A stretch of 63,642 nucleotides of DNA, counting the filler, from Basidiobolus ranarum (Eukaryota), in the NCBI GenBank assembly GCA_040143965.1. It is 43 parts of 43 records of this genome, joined end to end, with 100 filler letters (N's around TTAATTAATTAA, not from the genome) between each part and the next. Parts side by side here need not be neighbours in the genome. Positions count along the whole stretch, not along the records: positions 43,044 to 44,423 come from JASJQH010012234.1; 42 more parts are not named here. One strand, given 5' to 3'. Shown piece by piece: positions 9,072 to 60,689 of the stretch. The first letter of the stretch is position 1; every line of letters starts with the position of its first letter. Both the position numbers and the translations under genes were made by a program. A model generated the notes under the pieces. The model did not search any database. It had not been told where the DNA came from and saw only the letters and a program-made list of their open reading frames with translations.

Positions 9072-9199
9072 AGTTACCATTGCAATTATCTCCTCCATTA
9101 CCAACGCCACTGTTAGTGTTCCTGTTTCCATTAATACCCTTACCAGCTTCATATGCACGAGCTCCAGTGACGCTATTTCTATAGCAATTGTCTCCTCCG

Positions 9200-13386: not shown

Positions 13387-14244
13387 TACACATATTCTGG
13401 ATCAAACTTTGATTTGATGGGATATTCAGTTGCAAATTGGGGAAGAGATATTGAAGACAGGAGATCTACCACAGTATACTTATTTCTTTGTGGTATTAGA
13501 GCTATTTCATGGAATTCAAAGAAATAACCTACCATAGCACTTTCAACAGAAGAAGCTGAATATATGGCTGCCTGTGAAGCAACAAAAGAAGTAATATGGT
13601 TAAGAAAACTCCCAACAGATTTGGTTGTTTGCAAAATTCCCCAACTACAATATTTCAAGATAATCAAAGTTGTATCAAATTAGCTAAAAAACCCACATTT
13701 CATAATAGAAGCAAACATATAGATATTAAGCATCACTTCATTAGAGAGACTATAGAGAATAAGTCTATTGACTTAACTTGTTGTTCTATGGAAGACATGA
13801 TTGCTGATATTTTAACCAAATCATTAGCTTAACAGAAACTTGAGAAATTTAGATCATTATTAGGATTAGTTTATATGACTATTTAGTTGAGGGAGAGTGC
13901 TGTAATTAGCTTTGCCTAACCACCTTTATAGTCCTATATAGCTTGGTACTTAATTATCTTATAATTCACTAAGATATTATTCATTATTCTCAATTGGAAT
14001 TTACTTAGAATATCTTTACCAAGTTAGAAGTTCTCAGATATATAGATTTTTCAAACTTGGGCTAGAAGCCCTAAACTTTGCACACATGTTCCTGGGACCA
14101 TCCTTAACACTTGATACACATTAGTTTGTTTACATCTTGACAAAACCATAAAGTCAACTTTCTACTCAATAAATCAACTAGTGAAGACCACCAATTCCTC
14201 TAGTTCTCCAAAATACCTCCAACAGGCTCCCAATTACTTTAACA
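13387..14244 (+). mobile_element. Copia RNase H, PPT and 3' LTR type 2 (13898-14244)
   Basis: ALSTEEAEY, FQDNQSCI, RSKHIDIKHHFIRE, MIADILTK. PPT GAGGGAGAG precedes the LTR, which ends TTTAACA. Confidence 0.9.
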
Positions 14245-14638
14245 AAAACTAATCAAAAAACCAGCAAAAATGATGAAAATTTGCTCAATATGGTTCAAAA
14301 TATATCATTTGAAAGTCTTGAGTTCCCTTATCAATCTATGGTAGGTAGTTCAATCTATGATATGACTGGAACCTGGCCAGACATCTCTTTTGCAGTGGGA
14401 GTAGTTAGCCAACATGTGCATAACCCAGAATCTGAGCCTTATGCAGCAGTTAAGCAAATTTTCAGATATTTGAAGGGGACAATAGATCTGGGATTAAGAT
14501 ACACATATTCTTATGAGAATTAGAATCTAATTAGGTTTAGTGATGCAGATTGGAGATGTGATATTGAGGACAAAAGATCTATGGCTGGATATACCTCTCT
14601 CTATAGTGAAGCAGCCATATCTTGGAATAGCAAGAAAC
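14245..14638 (+). mobile_element. Copia RT/RNase H fragment
   Basis: YQSMVGSSIY..TGTWPDISFAVGVVSQ; homologous to 57010-57390. Confidence 0.85.
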
Positions 14639-14664
14639 TATTGGGATTACTTAGGGAGAAATAT

Positions 14665-14737
14665 TGGTCTGGCCAGGATTTGTACCTGGGACTTCCTTCA
14701 CTCTAGCAAGGTGCTCTAACCACTGAGCTACCAGTCA
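14665..14737 (-). ncRNA. tRNA-like sequence inside an LTR-like repeat (copy 1)
   Basis: 73-nt cloverleaf-like sequence with A-box TAGCTCAGTGG. It lies 26 nt inside the TATTG terminus at 14639. Confidence 0.7.
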
Positions 14738-14871
14738 TTGTATGCTATGCCTATATTGCTAGGGAACCTTANNNNNNNNNNNNNNNNNNNNNNNNNNNNN
14801 NNNNNNNNNNNNNNNTTAATTAATTAANNNNNNNNNNNNNNNNNNNNNNNNNNNNNNNNNNNNNNNNNNNN

Positions 14872-17841: not shown

Positions 17842-19226
17842 TATTCCTTATCTGCTCGCTTGAAGTGTCCAACTTGACGTGCTTGAATCTCCTTCTTGGC
17901 ATTCTTCAAGTGTCCAACAATATTCGACACAAGTCGCTCTTGTTGCTCTTTGTTCATCAAACGGTACAAGTCTCCTGCTTGCACAAAGTCTTCATCAGTG
18001 AGTTCATATGTATGACGACCAACCGCCCCACTGACTTCTTGCACTGAGTATGTACTGCCTTGGATGTTAGTCTGCTTTGGTCCAGCATGACTGTTGGGTT
18101 CATAGTTAGGCTGGGATCCATAGTTCCCATTCACCGTCATAGGTCCATCTCGCTGTTGGTTGGCTACTCTACTGTTGTAAGGCTGGTTGATTGGGATTTG
18201 TGTGTAGTTCGCTCCAAGACGATGGCGTTGAGTATCAGGGTAGGAGAAGAGACGTCCTTGCAACATACGATCATATGAGAGATCAATCCCTGGGACTGTA
18301 TGGGATGGAGAGAATGCTGCCTGTTCTGTCTCAGCAAAGTAGTTCTCTGGGTTACGGTTCAACACTAGTTTACCAACCGGCTGGAGTGGGTAATCCTTGT
18401 GAGGCCAGACTTTGGTCACATCAAAGATGTTCCAGCGGTATTGTTCCGCATCCTTGGGTTCCATCACTTGCACATACACACTCCACGATGGGAAGTCTCC
18501 CTTGGCAATGGAGTTGTACAAGTCACGAGTGGCGTAGTCAGGATCTTGACTGGCAAGTTTACCCGCCTCCTCTGCTGTGAAGGTTTTGTTTCCTTGGTCA
18601 GTCTTGAAATGCCATTTGACATATTTGAAGTTTCCTTGCTCATCAACCAACTTCAAAGTGTGTGAGCTGTATCCATTCATGTAACGATAGCCATTGGGTG
18701 TTCCTCGATCAGAGAACAAAATAGTCACTTGATGAATGGTCTCAGGAACAAGTGAGATAAAGTCCCAGAACATATCAGCATCTGGACAGTTCGTGGCAGG
18801 GTTTCTCTTCTGGGTATGAATGAAATCAGGGAACTTACTAGGGTCGCGAATAAAGAACACTGGTGTGTTGTTGCCCACCATATCCCAGTTGCCTTCTTCT
18901 GTGTAGAACTTCACAGCAAACCCACGTGGGTCTCTGGCGGTATCGGCTGACCCTTTCTCCCCTCCAACTGTGGAGAAGCGAAGGAAGGTAGGAGTACGTT
19001 TGCCAACACGGTTCAAGAATTTGGCTTTGGTGAGAGAGGTCACATCGTGTGTGACTTCAAAGTAACCGTGAGCACCTGCTCCCTTGGCGTGGACCACTCT
19101 CTCAGGAATTCGTTCACGGTCAAAATGAGAAAGTTTATCTAGTAAATGAAAGTCTTGGAGTAAGATAGGTCCATTGGGTCCAGCGGTGATAGAAGTTTGA
19201 TTATTTTCAACGGGGTTACCGTTAGT
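17842..19226 (-). CDS. Monofunctional small-subunit heme catalase (partial at both ends)
   Basis: Open frame across the whole contig: [67 protein letters not shown]. Confidence 0.97.
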
Positions 19227-20810: not shown

Positions 20811-22194
20811 AGTTTGAAATTTCCAATATGTAATTGCTAATTCTCACATAATTCACATATATATAAAATATATGTTCCAATTTGCAGCTAAGTGATATTT
20901 GACTAAATAATGTTGACTAACTAATATGTGATATATGAAATAATTAGGTGTATAAAGATATGGATAACATATATGATAAAGACAATAAACTTCAACATCT
21001 ATTATGTGACTTATCACTTGACTAACTACTTATTATCTTAACCCTTCTACCGGATCATATGACCAATCACATGATCATTACCCAATTAGTATCAACCTCT
21101 GATTCACCCACCTAGACACAAGTCAATATCAGTCACAAGATTGATAATGAATGATCTTTCATTGCCAAGACTTCAGCTGATGCATGACTCACTTATCTAT
21201 CTATCTATCTATCCAATCACATTTTCCTTTATCAGAATTAGTCATCCAATATCTTGGTGCTGACTAATTCATTTTGCAATCAAAAAGTATAAATAAAGCT
21301 AATTGAATCTTTTGTTTTAGTATGTGTTTCAACATATATAGGATCTCAACACTTCTCAGTGTTTCTGAACAAATTTAATATTCCTCTCTCATTTCTATCC
21401 AAGCCTAGTATCCACTAGCACCTACAGAACACCAAGCCTAGCTGCCTAGCAAACCTAATCTCTACCATAACATAGCAATCTTCTGCTATTCCCAAGACAT
21501 ATAATAGTTAGATCTGCTTGGCTAATACATCCTGCTTAAACAGTTCTAAGATTCTGGACTTAACTGTTTCTTTGGTTCAGTAAAGTTCAAGACTTTTTAT
21601 CCACTTTTTTCTTGGACACAACACAATAACTGAAGCAGAGTATATTGCAGCATCATATACAGCAAAGGAGGCTAAGCGGTTAAGGAAAATGTTCAAAGAC
21701 TTGGGTATTTTTCAAAGTTTACCCACTATAATTTTCAAGGATAATCAAAGTTGTATTTCTTTAGCTAAAAATCCCAAATTTCATGCTAGAAGTAAGCACA
21801 TTGACATTAATTATCACTTTGTTAAGGAAGTTATTGAGAATAAGCACATCCAATTACAATACTGTCCATCTGGGGTCATGATTGCTGACATCCTTGCCAA
21901 ACCATTGCCTAAGCCAAAAGTTGAAGTACCAAGATTTAAGTTAGGATTAAGATATATGAATATTTAGTTGAGTGGGAGTGTTGAAGTTTATTGTCTTTAT
22001 AATATTTGCTATCTTTATCTTTATACATCTAACTGTTGAAATTAGCATTGCCTAAACACCTATATAGTCATATAGAGCTTAGCACTTAGTTATCTTATAA
22101 CTCACTAAGATATTATCAATTATTCTCAATCGGAATTTACTTAGAATATTTTTACCAACTTAGAAGTTCTCAGATATATAGATTTTTCAAACTT
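20811..22194. mobile_element. Nested LTR cluster: LTR1 (20811-20997, -), LTR3 (about 20998-21623), Copia RNase H and PPT, LTR1 start (21979), LTR2 (22034 onward)
   Basis: Cross-matches to the other LTR copies. RNase H motifs FKDNQSCI and RSKHIDINYHFV. PPT AGTTGAGTGGGAG. Confidence 0.85.
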
Positions 22195-23098: not shown

Positions 23099-23678
23099 TT
23101 AATATCGGGATTTAAGGAATGTAAAGGATTCTTGTTCTAATCTCTTAGCCAGAGTACGTCCAATATCAGCAATGGGTGCAGGCTTATCCATATCACTATG
23201 TTTGCAATGGATGTGTCGAGTATCTATGACTCCAACAATGTAAGGCTTTAGCATGTCAGGGGTAATGAGGAGTTGGTCTTCTTCTTCCGGTACTGTTGCT
23301 CTAAAGAAGAGTACATTACCATAATAAATCCTCGGAGAATGCTTCTTTGCCACTTTGAAGTTGTTTTCAACTACACCACGGACTTTTTTCCATAATTGTT
23401 CACCTGAGTCTGAATAATCCTTAACACCGTAGCGTGGAAGTTTTACGTACGTACTCAATTGATCCATGTCCAATTGATTACGTTGGTGGGAATAGCTTAA
23501 AGTACTATCGATTAGAGCTAAAAGTGCTACTTTTTCGTTTCGTTGTTGAAGTAATATTGCTATACTGTGAGCAACACTGCCACCGAATGACCATCCTAGC
23601 AGGTAGTAGGGACCTTTTGGTTGGATACTACGAATCTGATCGAGGTAGTCTGATGCCATGTCTTCAATAGTTTCCGCA
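23099..23678 (-). CDS. C-terminal thioesterase domain of an NRPS (partial)
   Basis: TIEDMASDYLDQIRSIQPKGPYYLLGWSFGGSVA (GxSxG nucleophile motif), YYGNVLFFRAT, IHCKHSDM catalytic His. Confidence 0.9.
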
Positions 23679-28228: not shown

Positions 28229-29610
28229 TATAAACAAAGCTAACTGAACCTTTTGGTTTAATGTGTGTCTCAACAAATATAGGATCTCAACACTTCTCAG
28301 GGTTTCTTAGCAAATTCAATATTCCCCCTCATTTCTATCCAAGCCTAGTATCCACTAGTACCTACAGAATACCAAACCTAGCTGCCTAGCAAGCCTACTC
28401 TCTACTGTAACATAGCAACCCACTGCTATTCCCAAGAGATATATCAGTTAGATCTGCTCTGCTAATATATCCTGCTTAAATAATTTTAAGATTCTGCACT
28501 TAAACGTTTCTTTGGTTCAGTAAAGTTTGAGACTTTTGATCCACTTTTCTCTTGGACACAACAGTCCCAAAGTCCTTTTTCTTGCAGCAGCATTTTCATT
28601 TCCAGAAGAGGGAAAAGTTTTGTAAATTTGAGAAATAGACATTATAGAGAGTGCAAGCTTGGGGCTCATAATCTATCAGACTATTTGGGAGCCTGTTGGA
28701 GATGGTTTGGAGGATTAGAGAAATTGGTGGCTTTCACTTGTTGATTTATGTAGTAGGAACATAACATTGGTAGTTTTGTCCAGATGTAAACAAACTAACA
28801 TGTGGAATATGCTAAGGAAGGTCCCAGAAGCATGTGTGCAAAGTTTGGGGCTTCTAGCAGAAGTTTCAAAATCTATATATCTGAGAACTTCTGAGTTTGT
28901 AAAAATATTCTGAGTAAATTTCTCATGAGAATGATGGATAATATCTTAGTGAAATTTAAGATAACTAAGTACTAAGCTATATATTGTTGAAGTTAGCATT
29001 GCCTTAACACCTATATAGTCATATATAGCTTAGTACTTAGTTAACTTATAGTTCACCAAGATATTATCAATTATTATCAATGTGATTTTACTTGAAATAT
29101 TTTTACCAACTTAGAATTTCTGAGAAATATAGATTTTTCAAGCTTGTGCTAGAAGCCCCAAGCTTTGCACACATGTTCCTGGGACCTTCCTAAACACATT
29201 CTACGTGTTAGTTTGCTTACGTCTTGACAAAACTATAAATGTCAACTTTCTATTCAATAAACTGATAAGTGAAAACCACCAATTCCTCTAATTCTCCAAA
29301 CCACTTCCAACAGGCTCCCAAGTACTTTAGCATATAGGACTATATAGATGTTTAGGTAATGCTAATTTCAACAGTTGTTGCCATTTGGCTGAATAGAACC
29401 AATTTTGATGCATATATGTTATCATTTGGCATACAAAACAAAAGTATTGTACACTACTTAACATTAGTCAAGCACTTTAGCAGAAGATATTACAATAGGA
29501 GTGTTGGATAATTAATCTTTATTCAACATCATAGTTAACTTTAGTTATGATACATATATCAGAAACAGAAAGCAATGTATCTATAGCCCCTATATTCTAA
29601 ATAGGAATAT
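28229..29610. mobile_element. LTR nest: LTR3 end, inverted LTR2 with PBS, solo LTR2 (28985-29332) inside it, LTR4 start (about 29502)
   Basis: TGTTG...TTTAGCA solo LTR with near-TSD TATAT/TATAG. PBS-like GATTATGAGCCCC on the minus strand near 28661-28673. Confidence 0.85.
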
Positions 29611-29710: not shown

Positions 29711-30505
29711 TGCAATATGAGTAACCATGCTTTCAGACTTTTCCATCTTTATATTGAAGAATTTTCATCTGAGAAAGAGTCTATTAGCAAGACTCTTTGC
29801 TTCATAACACTCTTCCAATATAGTCCAAGCTTGATGGGAAGTCTTTGCATATTGAATATTCACAAGTTGTGAATCCTTCAAACTTTGACAAATGACATTA
29901 AAGGCCTCCTTGTCTCTTTTCTTGTAAGTTTCCAGTAAAGAAGGGTTGAAAGGTTCCTTGTCATTTCCAGAGACTACATCCCAAAACTCCCTTTCTTCCA
30001 GCATGATTTACATCTTGAACTTCTAGAAATTGTAATTTTCTCCATCAAGTTTTTCAACATTTGAGTTAATAAAAGTGGTAGTATTGGTTTCTGTCATGCT
30101 GTAAAGGTTAGAACACAGGGCTCATAACCTATTGGGAAAATATGGGCTGTTAGGAGGAACTTTAGAAAAGTGGAGTTGTGAATAGCTTGGTGAGATAATT
30201 ATTTATTGTCCAGAAATAAAGCATTTATACATTTTAGTGGAACTACAAAAAACTAACACTGGGGTTGTGTTCAGAACATCTGTGGGAGTAAAATGAGCTA
30301 TCTTTCGGGCAATTTGGATGAGTTTGAAATATCCAATATGGAATTGCTAATTCTAACACTACTCACATATATATAATATATGTTTCAATTTTCAGTTAAG
30401 TGATATTTGCTTACATAATGTTAACTGATTTATATGTGATATATGAAATAGTTAGGTGTATAAAGACAGAGATAACAAATATGGTAAAGACCATAAACTT
30501 CAACA
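29711..30505 (-). mobile_element. Copia 5' LTR1 (30130-30505), PBS (30118-30129) and gag N-terminus
   Basis: LTR end CCCAATA followed by GGTTATGAGCCC, then MTETNTTTFINSNVEKLDGENYNF*KFKM*IMLEEREFWDVV. Confidence 0.92.
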
Positions 30506-38789: not shown

Positions 38790-39880
38790 AGTACCACATA
38801 TGCAATGATTCCAGAGTCATCAAGTTTCCGGAAGTAATTGTTTCAGAGTTAGAAACAGTTTCAGTTATTGGTGCAATATCCAGGTGATATAGAATCCCAA
38901 TTCTTGTTCCAGTTACTACTATTAAGCTCTTTGATTTGTATATGGTTGGTTTTCCTTGGCTGAATTTGACATCATAAGGTTTCTTTTCAATTGCTCTGAT
39001 TGAGAATAGATTTGTTGTAAATGATAGAATATAAAAGATATCTTCTGAAGTTGCTGCTACACTTTTGGTCTTACTTACTTGTAAGTCAAGTGTCACCACT
39101 CCCATTCCATATGCAGCCAGTTTGTTTCTTCCAGCTACCATGATGTTCAGAGATTGGATTTCTGTTGAAGCTTGTTGTCTTTATTATATTTGTTATCTCT
39201 ATCTTTATACACCTAGCTATTTCATATATCACATATAAGCTAGTTAACATCACTTAGTCATATATCACTTAGCTGAAAATTGGAACATATATTATATATA
39301 TATGTGAATAATGTGAGAATTAGCAATTCCATATTGGATATTTCAAACTCATCCAAATTGCCCCAAAAATAGCTCATTTTACTCCCACAGATGTTTGGAA
39401 CACAACCCCAGTGTTAGTTTTCTGTATTCCCATCAAAATGAATAAATGCTCTATTTCTGGACATTAAACAATTATCTCACAAAGTTATTCACAACTGCAC
39501 TTTTCTAAAGTTCCTCCAAACAGCCTATATTTTCCCAATAATTTCCTTATAGTCATGCATTATGTTTCTATTGTGACATATATGATCACTTGCACCAGAA
39601 TCTGGAATCCATACATTAGCAGAGTCATTTCCTGATTTAGAGGTTTCCATAAGTACTTAGTGTTCATTTACTCTTTTAGTGGTGCTATGTACTTCCCTTT
39701 TCTTTGAAACCCACTTCTTCTTTGATCTGTAATAACATGCTATGTGTCCCAGTTTTCACATTTGTAACATTTCACAGGGCTTCTTTCTGGTTGGCTATTT
39801 TGAGAACAAAATGCTTATGTAATTTTTGCTTCATCTGCAGGCTGACTTTTGTCTTTGCTTTTAAATTCTTCTTGACATAC
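38790..39880 (-). mobile_element. Copia gag/protease fragment interrupted by a solo LTR1
   Basis: WIPDSGASDHICH, TNLFSI. Homologous to 53401-53760. Confidence 0.85.
39163..39540 (+). repeat. Solo LTR1 (378 bp, TGTTG...CAATA) with a perfect 5-bp TSD ATTTC
   Basis: ATTTC at 39158-39162 and 39541-39545. The paralogous empty site near 53431 has a single ATTTC. Confidence 0.95.
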
Positions 39881-42943: not shown

Positions 42944-44336
42944 NNNNNNNNNNNNNNNNNNNNNNNNNNNNNNNNNNNNNNNNNNNNTTAATTAATTAAN
43001 NNNNNNNNNNNNNNNNNNNNNNNNNNNNNNNNNNNNNNNNNNNTTCAATCTGACAAATGATTTTCTTTAAGCTAAATTCATAGATGGCACTTTCTATTCT
43101 ATTGCATGATATACTATTTTCATTAAGTTGGAGTTAACTCATTTTATTGTGCTTGTCAAATATATTGTTTCCTTTGTATTTTATGTTCAGTCGCCCAAAA
43201 TATATAAATAACTCCATTAGAACCAGAAGCAATGACTTATTCCTTAAAAGATTTTATTCCACTGCCTTCAACTTCAAAGCTAGGCCTGGACTGAAACTTC
43301 TCCAAATTTTGTTGGCTTTTGACATTCCCATTGCAAAAGTCTTTATGCTTCCTGGTCCTTCTTCAATTACACTCTCCAATGCAATCATTCTAATATTTAA
43401 TAATATTCTCCAATACTGCCTGCAATATTGCCACTTGCCAAAGCATCTTGACAAGCACACAGTAAGTGAATATTCCTGAACCTCTTCTTCTATATGCTTA
43501 TTGGGTAAGATAAATGATTGAATATCTGTAGCAATAATACATGCAGGTGAAGGGTATGAGAGTCAACTTTGTGTGTCAATTTTGTTATGTTACTAGCTAA
43601 ACCAAACTGAATCAACACTGGATTACCACTGACTACTTTTTAAGTCTACAACTACATTGCTTTGTCTGTAACTTAGCAAAGATACTATGATAGATAAACC
43701 CTACTTGAATTTCTGTACTAACCAATCCCTATCACAAAATTTGATATAAGCTATACAAGTACTTATAATTCACTATATTATAATTGATTAGCCTAGAGAA
43801 TTAAAGCTTTTACCATGTGCTATCATTTACTATTAGGATTCTGCATCAAAACCATCAAAACACAGTATCACTTGGTTTCATATCAAACAGCAAACAAATC
43901 AATACCCCACAGAATGCTGTTCTCCAATGGAGCCTTCTTTGTACCATTAGAGATTGTATCTTCAGTACTGTTTTATACATATAGGTTGTACTGGCTTCCA
44001 ATTTAGCATTATCCATAGATTTCCATCCTCAAAGTTATATTATCAGCATATCCACATTTTTACATCCCACTTCTGGATTTAATAATAATCTGAAAGAGAT
44101 CTGGCCCCAAGGTATGTTAATCTGGTAGTATTTATATCAATTTATACTTGCTTTCCTGACTGGTATAAACTATCTATATACATAATACTTAGCTTAAGTA
44201 TACAATTCTTCATGTTTGACACCATATGCATGATCAGAGTGAATAAAGTATACATCTTTTGAAAAATAGACATCAAGGAAGAAGAATATGATATTATGCT
44301 TTGATAATACTGTTGAAATTATTTAGGGAGAAATAT

Positions 44337-44409
44337 TGGTCTGGCCAGGAATTGAACCTGGGACCTCCTTCACTCTAGCAAGGTGCTCTAACCATTGAGC
44401 TACCAGTCC
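44337..44409 (-). ncRNA. tRNA-like sequence inside an LTR-like repeat (copy 2)
   Basis: GGACTGG TA GCTC AATGGTTA GAGC A CCTTG CTAGAGT GAAGG AGGTC CCAGG TTCAATT CCTGG CCAGACC A. It lies 26 nt inside TGTTG at 44311. Confidence 0.75.
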
Positions 44410-44523
44410 TTGTATGCTATGCCNNNNNNNNNNNNNNNNNNNNNNNNNNNNNNNNNNNNNNNNNNNNTTAATTAATTAANNNNNNNNNNNNNNNNNNNNN
44501 NNNNNNNNNNNNNNNNNNNNNNN

Positions 44524-56357: not shown

Positions 56358-57735
56358 TATTTTGTTGGAAATACAGAAAACTAACACTGGTGTTGTGTTC
56401 AGAACATCTGTGGGAGTAAAATGAGCTATTTTTGGGGCAACTTTGATGAGTTTGAAATTTCCAATATGTAATTGCTAATTCTCACATCATTCACATATAT
56501 ATAATATATGTTCCAATTTTCAGCTAAGTGATATTTGACTAAGTAGTGTTAACTAACTTATATATGATATAGGAAATAGTTAGGTGTATAAAGATAGAGA
56601 TAACAAATATGATAAAGACAATAAACTTCAACACTCCCACTCAACTAAATATTCATATATATTAATCCTAACTTAAATCTCAATGCTGCAAATATTGGCT
56701 TGGGTAATGGATTTGCAAGGATGTCAGCAATCATGTCCTCAGTTGGACAGTACTGTAGTTGGACATGCTTATTTTCAATAGCTTCCCTAACAAAGTGATG
56801 TTGAATGTAAATGTGCTTACTTCTAGCATGAAATTTGGCATTTTTTGCTAGAAAAATACAACTTTGATTGTCCTTGAAAATTATGGTGGGTGAATATGTA
56901 TTAATGCCCAAGTCTTTGAGCAGTTTCCTTCACCACATAATCTCCTTTGTTGCATATGATGCTGCCATGTATTCTGCTTCAGTTGTTGAAAGTGCTACAG
57001 TGGGTTGTTTCTTGCTATTCCAAGATATGGCTGCTTCACTAGAGAGAAAGATAAATCCAATGATAGATCTTATGTCCTCAATATCACATCCCTAATTTGC
57101 ATCACTAAACCCAATTAGATCCTTATTCTCATAAAAATATGTGTAACTTAATCCCAGATCAATTGTCCCCTTCAAATATCTAAAAATCCGCTTAACTGCT
57201 GCATAATGCTCAGATCCTGGGTTTTGCACATGTTGGTTAACTACTCCCACTGCAAAAGCAATATCTGGCTGGGCTCCAGTCATAGCATAGATCAAACTAC
57301 CCACGATAGATTGAGAAGGGAACTCAGGGCTTTCAAATGACATATTTTGAGCCATATTTGGCCTATTTTCATCATTTTTGATTGGATTTTTGACTAGTTT
57401 CACACCTGGATCCATGGGAGTTGCTACTGGCATACAATTCTTCATCCTGTAGCATCTGGAAATGTCTGAGATGTATTTAGATTGATTCAGAGTGATAGAC
57501 CTGCTCAATATATCTGTATAGATCTGCAGACCTAAAAAATATGTAAGTTTACCTAAATCAGTCATCTTGAATTGGACTGATAGATCTCTTTTGGTGTTCC
57601 TGAGAGCTTCATCATTATTGGTAGCTATAATCAGATCATCTACATATAAGGCAAGTATCACCTTACTGTCCTTATCTGTCTTAAAGTAGATCCCAAAATC
57701 CGCCGTACTCTTTTGGAAATCAAGTGATTCCAAGT
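56358..57735 (-). mobile_element. Copia RT and RNase H, PPT and 3' LTR1 (56358-56633)
   Basis: LALYVDDLII, GFSDAN, ALSTTEAEY, RSKHI. PPT at 56634-56646. Confidence 0.95.
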
Positions 57736-60209: not shown

Positions 60210-60689
60210 TGATAAAAGTGTTTAGGGGATTTGGAAGTGTTTTGGACAAGAATTGGATTTGTGAATTAGACACTTAAGTTTTATTGAATTGAATATGTCC
60301 TATTTATAGTTTACTATGAAATAGGACTATTGGACATGCTTAGATCATAATAAACATGCCTGTTAAGCATGGGTGAAAATTTGAGGTGATTTGGAGAAGT
60401 TTTGAGAAAATAGTGAAAATTGATAAAAGTGATCTAATTGATATTTCTATCAATTAGAGTAATAAACACATGTTTTTGAATGACATAATTGAGTACTAAA
60501 TAATCAGAATATGAATAAACCAACTACTAAATAATGAGTTGCTATTTACCTAATTTCAACATTCCCACTCAACTAATTATTTTGTGTTTCTCTTAAACCT
60601 AACTTATATCGTAATATTTCAAATTGTGCCTTAGCTAAAGGTTTGGTTAAGATATCAGCTATCATCTCTTAAATAGGGCAATAGACAAG
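60210..60689 (-). mobile_element. Copia RNase H end, PPT and 3' LTR5 (60210-60561)
   Basis: MIADILTKPL. PPT AGTTGAGTGGGAA. The LTR matches 61623-61973. Confidence 0.85.

Follow-up and report, generated by a model that had tools for sequence, protein, structure and literature searches.

A decayed tRNA-like unit in an LTR-type repeat of Basidiobolus ranarum: a possible Helenus-type miniature retrotransposon

Introduction

We describe a repeat family with an embedded tRNA-like unit in a stretch of 63,642 bases (hereafter the window) from the genome assembly of the fungus Basidiobolus ranarum (GCA_040143965.1), a member of a genus assigned to Basidiobolomycota in the NCBI taxonomy. The two copies that the window holds are best explained as belonging to two distinct insertions, each visible at its outer end, of a single repeat family of the long terminal repeat (LTR) type, within which a decayed tRNA-derived unit lies close to the terminus. 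The most likely identity of the repeat is the LTR of a Helenus-type (TRIMp3) element, that is, a miniature LTR retrotransposon that would depend on Copia elements for its mobility, although our belief and our doubt in this identification are about evenly balanced.

Helenus elements are TRIMs (miniature retrotransposons bounded by terminal repeats) with tRNA-derived sequence in their LTRs, and their promoter motifs are TRGCY, YGG and GGTTC (Kojima 2024, PMC10886601). In fungi they make target-site duplications (TSDs) of 5 bp, evidence suggests that they are mobilised by Copia, and most of them share with fungal Copia a primer-binding site (PBS) of the tRNA-iMet anticodon-arm type (PMC10886601). 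Helenus LTRs of rust fungi explain why tRNA-Thr, Ser-AGA, Ala and other tRNAs are falsely called there by the hundreds, with families such as Helenus-9_PSt, Helenus-2_UVF and Helenus-6_CroRib behind the false tRNA-Ser-AGA calls (PMC10886601). The fungal hosts named in the portion of that account available to us are Pucciniales and a few Agaricomycetes, and the survey covered only genomes related to known hosts (PMC10886601).

The window consists of 43 unrelated contigs of 1,376-1,389 bp (~1.38 kb), ordered by size and separated by linkers of 100 bases (N44-TTAATTAATTAA-N44), such as those following the two copies (Table 1); features ought not to be read across them. Its overall GC content is 36%, and most contigs are nested, decayed transposon fragments with 65-96% identity among each other. 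Pfam matches comprise fragments of Copia reverse transcriptase (RVT_2), integrase, SH3_retrovirus and CACTA-type Transposase_21, together with a few host-type genes.

Results

Two copies of one repeat share an exact boundary

The two copies (Table 1) align in BLAST with 92.2% identity across 115 nt, differing at nine positions, and their coordinates and anatomy are as an earlier note on this DNA had described them. The assembly cuts both copies off, each running directly into a linker at the end of its contig, and no third copy was detected within the window with BLAST searches down to word size 7 and E 10. Both copies start at the same boundary base despite unrelated flanks, the left flank of copy 2 having no match in any other contig of the window. 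Because the same position recurs in two unrelated flanks, this boundary is the true terminus of a mobile element.

The flank of copy 1 provides an empty-site reference for its target. Similarity between contig 10 and its Copia paralog, which lies in contig 39, breaks off exactly at 14638, in line with the earlier claim that copy 1 interrupts a Copia RNase H whose paralog is uninterrupted, and the paralog continues through the empty site with ...AAGAAAC and then AACCCACTG (AACCCA). The paralog peptide at this site (...AAISWNSKKQPTVALSTTEAEY...) aligns to residues 1225-1255 of the Copia polyprotein P0132 (1,362 aa), in which RVT_2 extends to residue 1113, 112 aa before the aligned peptide. Since the alignment lies past the end of RVT_2, the insertion site can be assigned by homology to the Copia RNase H region. 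In contig 10, two Copia fragments are nested with an LTR of family A, one of the LTR families described below.

The organization of the two copies is also shared. The tRNA-like unit measures 73 nt, and in both copies exactly 26 nt separate it from the repeat boundary. Beyond the unit, the 14 nt at 44410-44423 of copy 2 are identical at 13/14 positions to 14738-14751 of copy 1, and these nucleotides are upstream of the unit when it is read in the tRNA sense. Read in that same sense, each copy terminates 26 nt beyond the unit, with ...TAATTTCAACA or ...ATCCCAATA (...TTTCAACA / ...CCCAATA). The earlier note had named an A-rich or simple-repeat tail as a finding that would refute its interpretation; no such tail is present at the visible terminus of either copy.

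Contig 15 was considered as a candidate for the other flank of copy 1 and rejected: its breakpoint is where a different repeat, family D, has its 3' end, about 20 nt away. Family D is a further LTR-like repeat of at least 626 bp that ends in ...CTTGGACACAACA and occurs at 20998-21623 (+) in contig 15 and at 28229-28563 in contig 20. In contig 15 its insertion in a Copia RNase H region is offset by about 20 nt from the site of copy 1 in another Copia copy, and the family has nothing in common with the element.

The tRNA-like unit combines a decayed tRNA body with candidate promoter boxes

ARAGORN and the Rfam tRNA model (cutoff 29 bits) agree on a minus-strand cloverleaf in each copy, placed as the earlier note had placed it (scores in Table 1); no other tRNA match was found in the window with Rfam, even at E<=1. 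In the Rfam alignment both units show the A3:A70 and G31:G39 mismatches that had been reported, together with a 5-nt variable region, and the unit of copy 1 has a U1:C72 mismatch in addition. Eukaryotic tRNA-Ser requires a long (class II) variable arm. Because the variable region is short where tRNA-Ser needs this arm, the unit, for all its AGA triplet, is not a working tRNA-Ser, in agreement with the earlier conclusion; the features of a genuine tRNA-Ser (class II arm, fully paired stems) have no match in either copy.

In copy 2, box A and box B are intact, and its TAGCT, TGG and GGTTC correspond to all three Helenus motifs, two of which are retained in copy 1. The minimum-energy fold of the copy 2 unit is a cloverleaf. 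Thermodynamic z-scores for the cloverleaf were not significant, as is usual for tRNAs, and were given no weight. On the opposite strand, Rfam returned a sub-threshold match to Plastid-ycf2 5UTR RNA (44336-44409, +; 32.1 bits against a cutoff of 65.7 bits), which is probably the tRNA-like unit seen from the other side and not a real feature.

The terminus resembles the ends of resident Copia LTRs

The first 11 nt of copy 2, TGTTGAAATTA, occur exactly five times in the window against 0.17 expected, and none of 100 shuffles reached five. The other four occurrences are LTR termini, at both ends of family A and at the 5' end of family B in two copies. Copy 1 starts with the 8 nt TATTGGGA, the exact reverse complement of the 3' end of the family C LTR, TCCCAATA. 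Because the 11-mer of copy 2 and the 8-mer of copy 1 equal Copia LTR ends, the sequence supports the description of the terminus as LTR-like that the earlier note had offered, a description strengthened by comparison with the Copia LTRs of the window itself. Just outside termini of the TGTTG type, the dinucleotide is AC in both element copies and at 7 among the 15 outer LTR-type termini that were tabulated, with a background of 0.05; the bias was noticed post hoc and in small numbers, and may reflect a shared, GTNAC-like target preference of the integrase.

Co-resident Copia families provide a candidate partner

The comparison above depends on the resident LTR families, whose LTRs measure 377-389 bp. 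A sequence resembling a polypurine tract (PPT), TTGAG(T/G)GGGA(G/A), lies between the Copia 3' end and the LTR start at four sites (13887+, 21968+, 56644- and 60572-); in contig 10, for instance, the family A LTR directly follows the Copia internal 3' end and the PPT at 13887. The solo family C LTR is bordered by a perfect 5-bp TSD, ATTTC (39158-39162 and 39541-39545). Directly after LTR 3' ends, G(G/A)TTATGAGCCC occurs at two sites; we take this sequence, of which GGTTATGAGCCC is the form given in Table 1, to be a PBS that would pair with the tRNA-iMet anticodon arm. Because of the PPT and LTR start at four sites, the TSD of the solo LTR and the PBS after 3' ends, families A, B and C are, on sequence grounds, real Copia LTRs. 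None of the Copia LTR families of the window contains the tRNA-like unit.

A potential Copia partner, of the kind that Helenus elements call for, is thus represented in the genome by fragments of reverse transcriptase, RNase H and integrase, by PPTs and by PBS sites, and the partnership with the element is presumed from this co-residence. Two observations on family A stand apart. The terminal inverted repeats of its LTR are unusually long (about 54 nt, 85% identity), and a truncated, inverted relative, A', abuts the LTR, ending in ...GTCTGATA followed by the PBS GATTATGAGCCC at 28662-28673 (-).

Table 1. Positions in the window of the element copies, their parts and the associated Copia features
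Feature	Position	Strand	Description
Element copy 1	14639-14771		133 nt, terminus to end of contig 10; more decayed copy; linker 14772-14871 next
Element copy 2	44311-44423		113 nt, terminus to end of contig 30; linker 44424-44523 next
tRNA-like unit, copy 1	14665-14737	-	ARAGORN tRNA-Ser(AGA); Rfam tRNA 45.2 bits, E 2e-6
tRNA-like unit, copy 2	44337-44409	-	ARAGORN tRNA-Ser(AGA); Rfam tRNA 57.8 bits, E 7e-10
Terminal segment of copy 2, 26 nt	44311-44336		First 11 nt TGTTGAAATTA, the LTR terminal motif
Copia reverse transcriptase/RNase H fragment interrupted by copy 1	14246-14638	+	87.8% over 394 bp to contig 39
Uninterrupted Copia paralog	57007-57400	-	Contig 39; empty-site reference for the copy 1 target
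AC flanks, examples	22032-22033, 9073-9074, 29374-29375, 14637-14638, 44309-44310		
Family A Copia LTR, complete	28985-29373	+	389 bp; contig 20; 11-mer or 1-mismatch variant at both ends
Family C Copia LTR, solo	39163-39540	+	378 bp; contig 27; 3' end TCCCAATA
PBS GGTTATGAGCCC	30118-30129	-	Contig 21; directly after the 3' end of the family C 5' LTR (30118-30137 region)
PPT-like TTGAGTGGGAA, then family B LTR start TGTTGAAATTA	60551-60572	-	

Searches for relatives

A scan of metagenomes with a 24-nt core sequence gave 0 matches. With the anticodon left free, the scan returned 17 loci, and BLAST of both copies (E <= 1e-3) matched seven of them, each over 24-27 nt; ARAGORN found no tRNA at any matched metagenome site, and we read these matches as chance. 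Scanning contigs of prokaryote genomes gave 0 matches, and scanning viral contigs gave one (L018), whose contig equals that of locus L008 in length and which therefore appears to be the same sequence. The Copia reverse transcriptase had a best match of 58% identity, and Protein Atlas clusters were mostly from Streptophyta; neither helps to place the host. No such element is described for Basidiobolus in the literature titles and abstracts searched, a point that the supplementary family tables of PMC10886601 might change.

Other contents of the window

Several contigs hold features outside the repeat family and its Copia context. A catalase open reading frame of 461 aa spans the whole of contig 13 without interruption (17844-19226, -; Pfam Catalase E 1e-200). 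The GC content of this contig is 47%, against about 36% elsewhere in the window, and the contig may represent contamination, a gene gained by horizontal transfer or a host gene lacking introns. In contig 16, a fragment of a thioesterase of the non-ribosomal peptide synthetase (NRPS) type (23102-23677, -) has 85% and 70% identity to two Basidiobolus ranarum proteins, the former a carrier-domain protein, and 51% to a B. meristosporus protein; the next named relatives (40-53%) are NRPSs of Mortierellaceae and of Burkholderia-related endosymbiont origin, a pattern of relatives that suggests an NRPS of bacterial type. An ADH fragment finds its best named match in a Basidiobolus ranarum protein (92% identity). 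Transposase fragments of the CACTA/En-Spm type (Pfam Transposase_21) lie in contig 14 (19327-19899, -) and contig 40 (58688-59140, +), with about 89% nucleotide identity between them.

Discussion

Identity and proposed mechanism

The interpretation put forward in the earlier note is supported in part, namely for an LTR-like terminus, mobility and a non-functional tRNA, and its comparison with Helenus is apt, since the Helenus LTRs of rusts likewise yield inflated tRNA-Ser-AGA predictions (PMC10886601). Its description of the cloverleaf as antisense is not supported, as the term reflects only the strand that was read: the LTR termini here are inverted repeats, so that either orientation of the unit fits the visible end. 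A weak hint in favour of the sense reading comes from the pattern of terminal dinucleotides, in which PPT-adjacent LTR 5' ends start with TG (4/4), CA or TA closes LTR 3' ends, and the terminus of copy 1 is of the TA type.

On this basis we propose a mechanism in which the element would read along the minus strand of the window, placing the tRNA-like unit in sense orientation near the 3' end of the LTR. Box A and box B in the 5' LTR would then recruit RNA polymerase III (Pol III), and the transcript would cover, after the 26-nt tail, first a PBS and then a short internal region and a PPT. On its sense strand the tail lacks any stretch of four T or longer, which could allow read-through by Pol III. 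Co-resident Copia elements would supply reverse transcriptase and integrase in trans. Paired LTRs, a small overall size, the orientation, transcription by Pol III and mobilisation by Copia are the parts of this scheme that we infer. If insertion produced a 5-bp TSD, the far flank of copy 1 would be expected to resume with GAAAC and then AACCCACTG (AACCCACTGTAGC).

Weighing the alternatives

Several observations weigh against a Helenus-type identity. A single end is visible in each copy, over at most 133 nt, and none of the structures that define a Helenus TRIM, namely paired LTRs, a short internal region with PBS and PPT, a 5-bp TSD and a non-coding length of less than about 1-1.3 kb, is in view; the LTR may be that of an autonomous element of full size. 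The visible end is equally well read as an LTR 5' end with an antisense unit or as a 3' end with a sense unit, and an antisense unit would undo the Pol III model. Comparison with the resident families leaves these two readings level, the 11-mer matching the family A 3' end (3/2000 shuffles) about as well as the family B 5' end (16/2000) and the sub-terminal likeness to the 3' end of the family C LTR being non-significant (111-133/2000 shuffles). Box B of copy 1 is mutated to GGTAC. There are only two copies, about 8% diverged and with no sign of recent activity, and no related sequence was found across the metagenome, viral and prokaryote collections scanned. In addition, 'not a few' LTRs in Repbase hold tRNA-like parts, and only some of these belong to TRIMs (PMC10886601).

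This last point also fits the main rival, in which the repeat is an ordinary Copia-type LTR, of a full-size or large non-autonomous element transcribed by RNA polymerase II, and the unit is a captured tRNA gene or a tRNA-derived short interspersed nuclear element (SINE) riding in either orientation as a passenger and not as a promoter. An LTR-type terminus in a Copia-rich context fits this account equally well, as do both orientations of the visible end, and a 133-nt view is uninformative on size where the known LTRs measure 377-389 bp. We nevertheless consider it unlikely, though a serious contender, on two grounds: the boxes of copy 2 are intact within a tRNA that would not work, as selection for promoter function would leave them, and no Copia LTR family of the window holds the unit. 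Much less probable is a tRNA-derived SINE on the minus strand, a non-LTR element dependent on a long interspersed nuclear element (LINE). A tRNA-like head with boxes A and B, more than one copy and a tendency to break the assembly would all suit a SINE; it is disfavoured because sequence upstream of the unit is conserved (13/14 nt) and because the copies end at the same base, 26 nt past the unit, in an LTR-type terminus with no A-rich or repeat tail, and no LINE-type domain appears among the Pfam matches in the window.

We give still less weight to a non-mobile origin, whether as a dispersed tRNA pseudogene or as a real tRNA family with conserved flanks spread by segmental duplication. The strong tRNA covariance scores and the mere two copies seen agree with it, but an AGA triplet on a class I variable arm and two stem mismatches exclude tRNA-Ser, and the boundary both falls inside a Copia RNase H codon that is intact in the paralog and carries the LTR terminal 11-mer. 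An assembly artefact, with chimeric contig ends formed where short-read contigs collapse on a repeat, is the least credible explanation, and we regard it as very improbable: the copies do occupy the last 113-133 nt of ~1.38-kb contigs in a fragmented, repeat-rich assembly, but two independent contigs share the junction base with different flanks, and the nine differences between the copies mean that they are not one collapsed sequence. The repeat would be real regardless. An origin by PBS read-through, in which an antisense tRNA is copied from the primer, was also considered and rejected, as it would imply an impossible LTR of 26 nt and no CCA end is encoded.

Significance

Returning to the Helenus-type identity, a new family in the Basidiobolus lineage is plausible, the genus being absent from the Helenus hosts named in the portion of the published account that we cite. 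A wider proposal, to which we assign somewhat less than an even chance, is that the repeat represents the first Helenus-type lineage outside Dikarya, a Copia-dependent one in Basidiobolomycota whose tRNA promoter was captured independently, and which is perhaps abundant enough for short-read assemblies to break on it and for the tRNA-Ser(AGA) counts of Basidiobolus genomes to be inflated. If so, TRIMs with Pol III promoters would extend from rusts and a small number of mushrooms to a phylum of early-diverging fungi, supporting repeated, independent capture of Pol III promoters by LTR parasites across fungal phyla. The concept was published in 2024 (PMC10886601), and the present case is an extension of it, not a new kind of element and not one that would surprise a specialist. 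There is also a practical warning for annotation, in that tRNA-Ser(AGA) is what tRNA predictors report for these units, and the position of the repeats at the ends of fragmented contigs is consistent with their breaking the assembly. The window further allows the Copia lineage that is the likely partner to be characterised concisely, through its termini, PPT, putative PBS and 5-bp TSD.

Comparison with known systems

Among the systems with which the element can be compared, the resident Copia families resemble it at the termini. Families A and B share the terminal 11-mer and family C the 8-mer, and the AC flank bias is shared as well, whereas past the termini there is no similarity and none of these families has a tRNA-like unit. 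The SINE2 class offers a tRNA-like head, an internal Pol III promoter, dispersal and a lack of coding capacity, but SINEs start at the tRNA head and end in LINE-like or A-rich sequence, while the element has sequence upstream of the unit and an LTR terminus.

Cassandra elements of plants also place the promoter of a small-RNA gene in the LTR of a miniature element, with transcription starting from inside the 5' LTR (PMC10886601). Their unit derives from 5S rRNA, for which Rfam searches of the window, at the gathering threshold and at E<=1 alike, gave no match, their hosts are plants and their Pol III transcription has been validated, whereas the unit described here is tRNA-like, its host is a fungus and its transcription by Pol III is a prediction.

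Helenus differs in its hosts, which in the present case would include Basidiobolus, and the element, known from LTR-type end fragments, is set beside it by description. The likeness between them lies in a tRNA-derived unit with boxes A and B within an LTR-type repeat, in an AGA triplet on a class I tRNA body, and in a fungal host rich in Copia elements with 5-bp TSDs and what we take to be a PBS of the iMet type.

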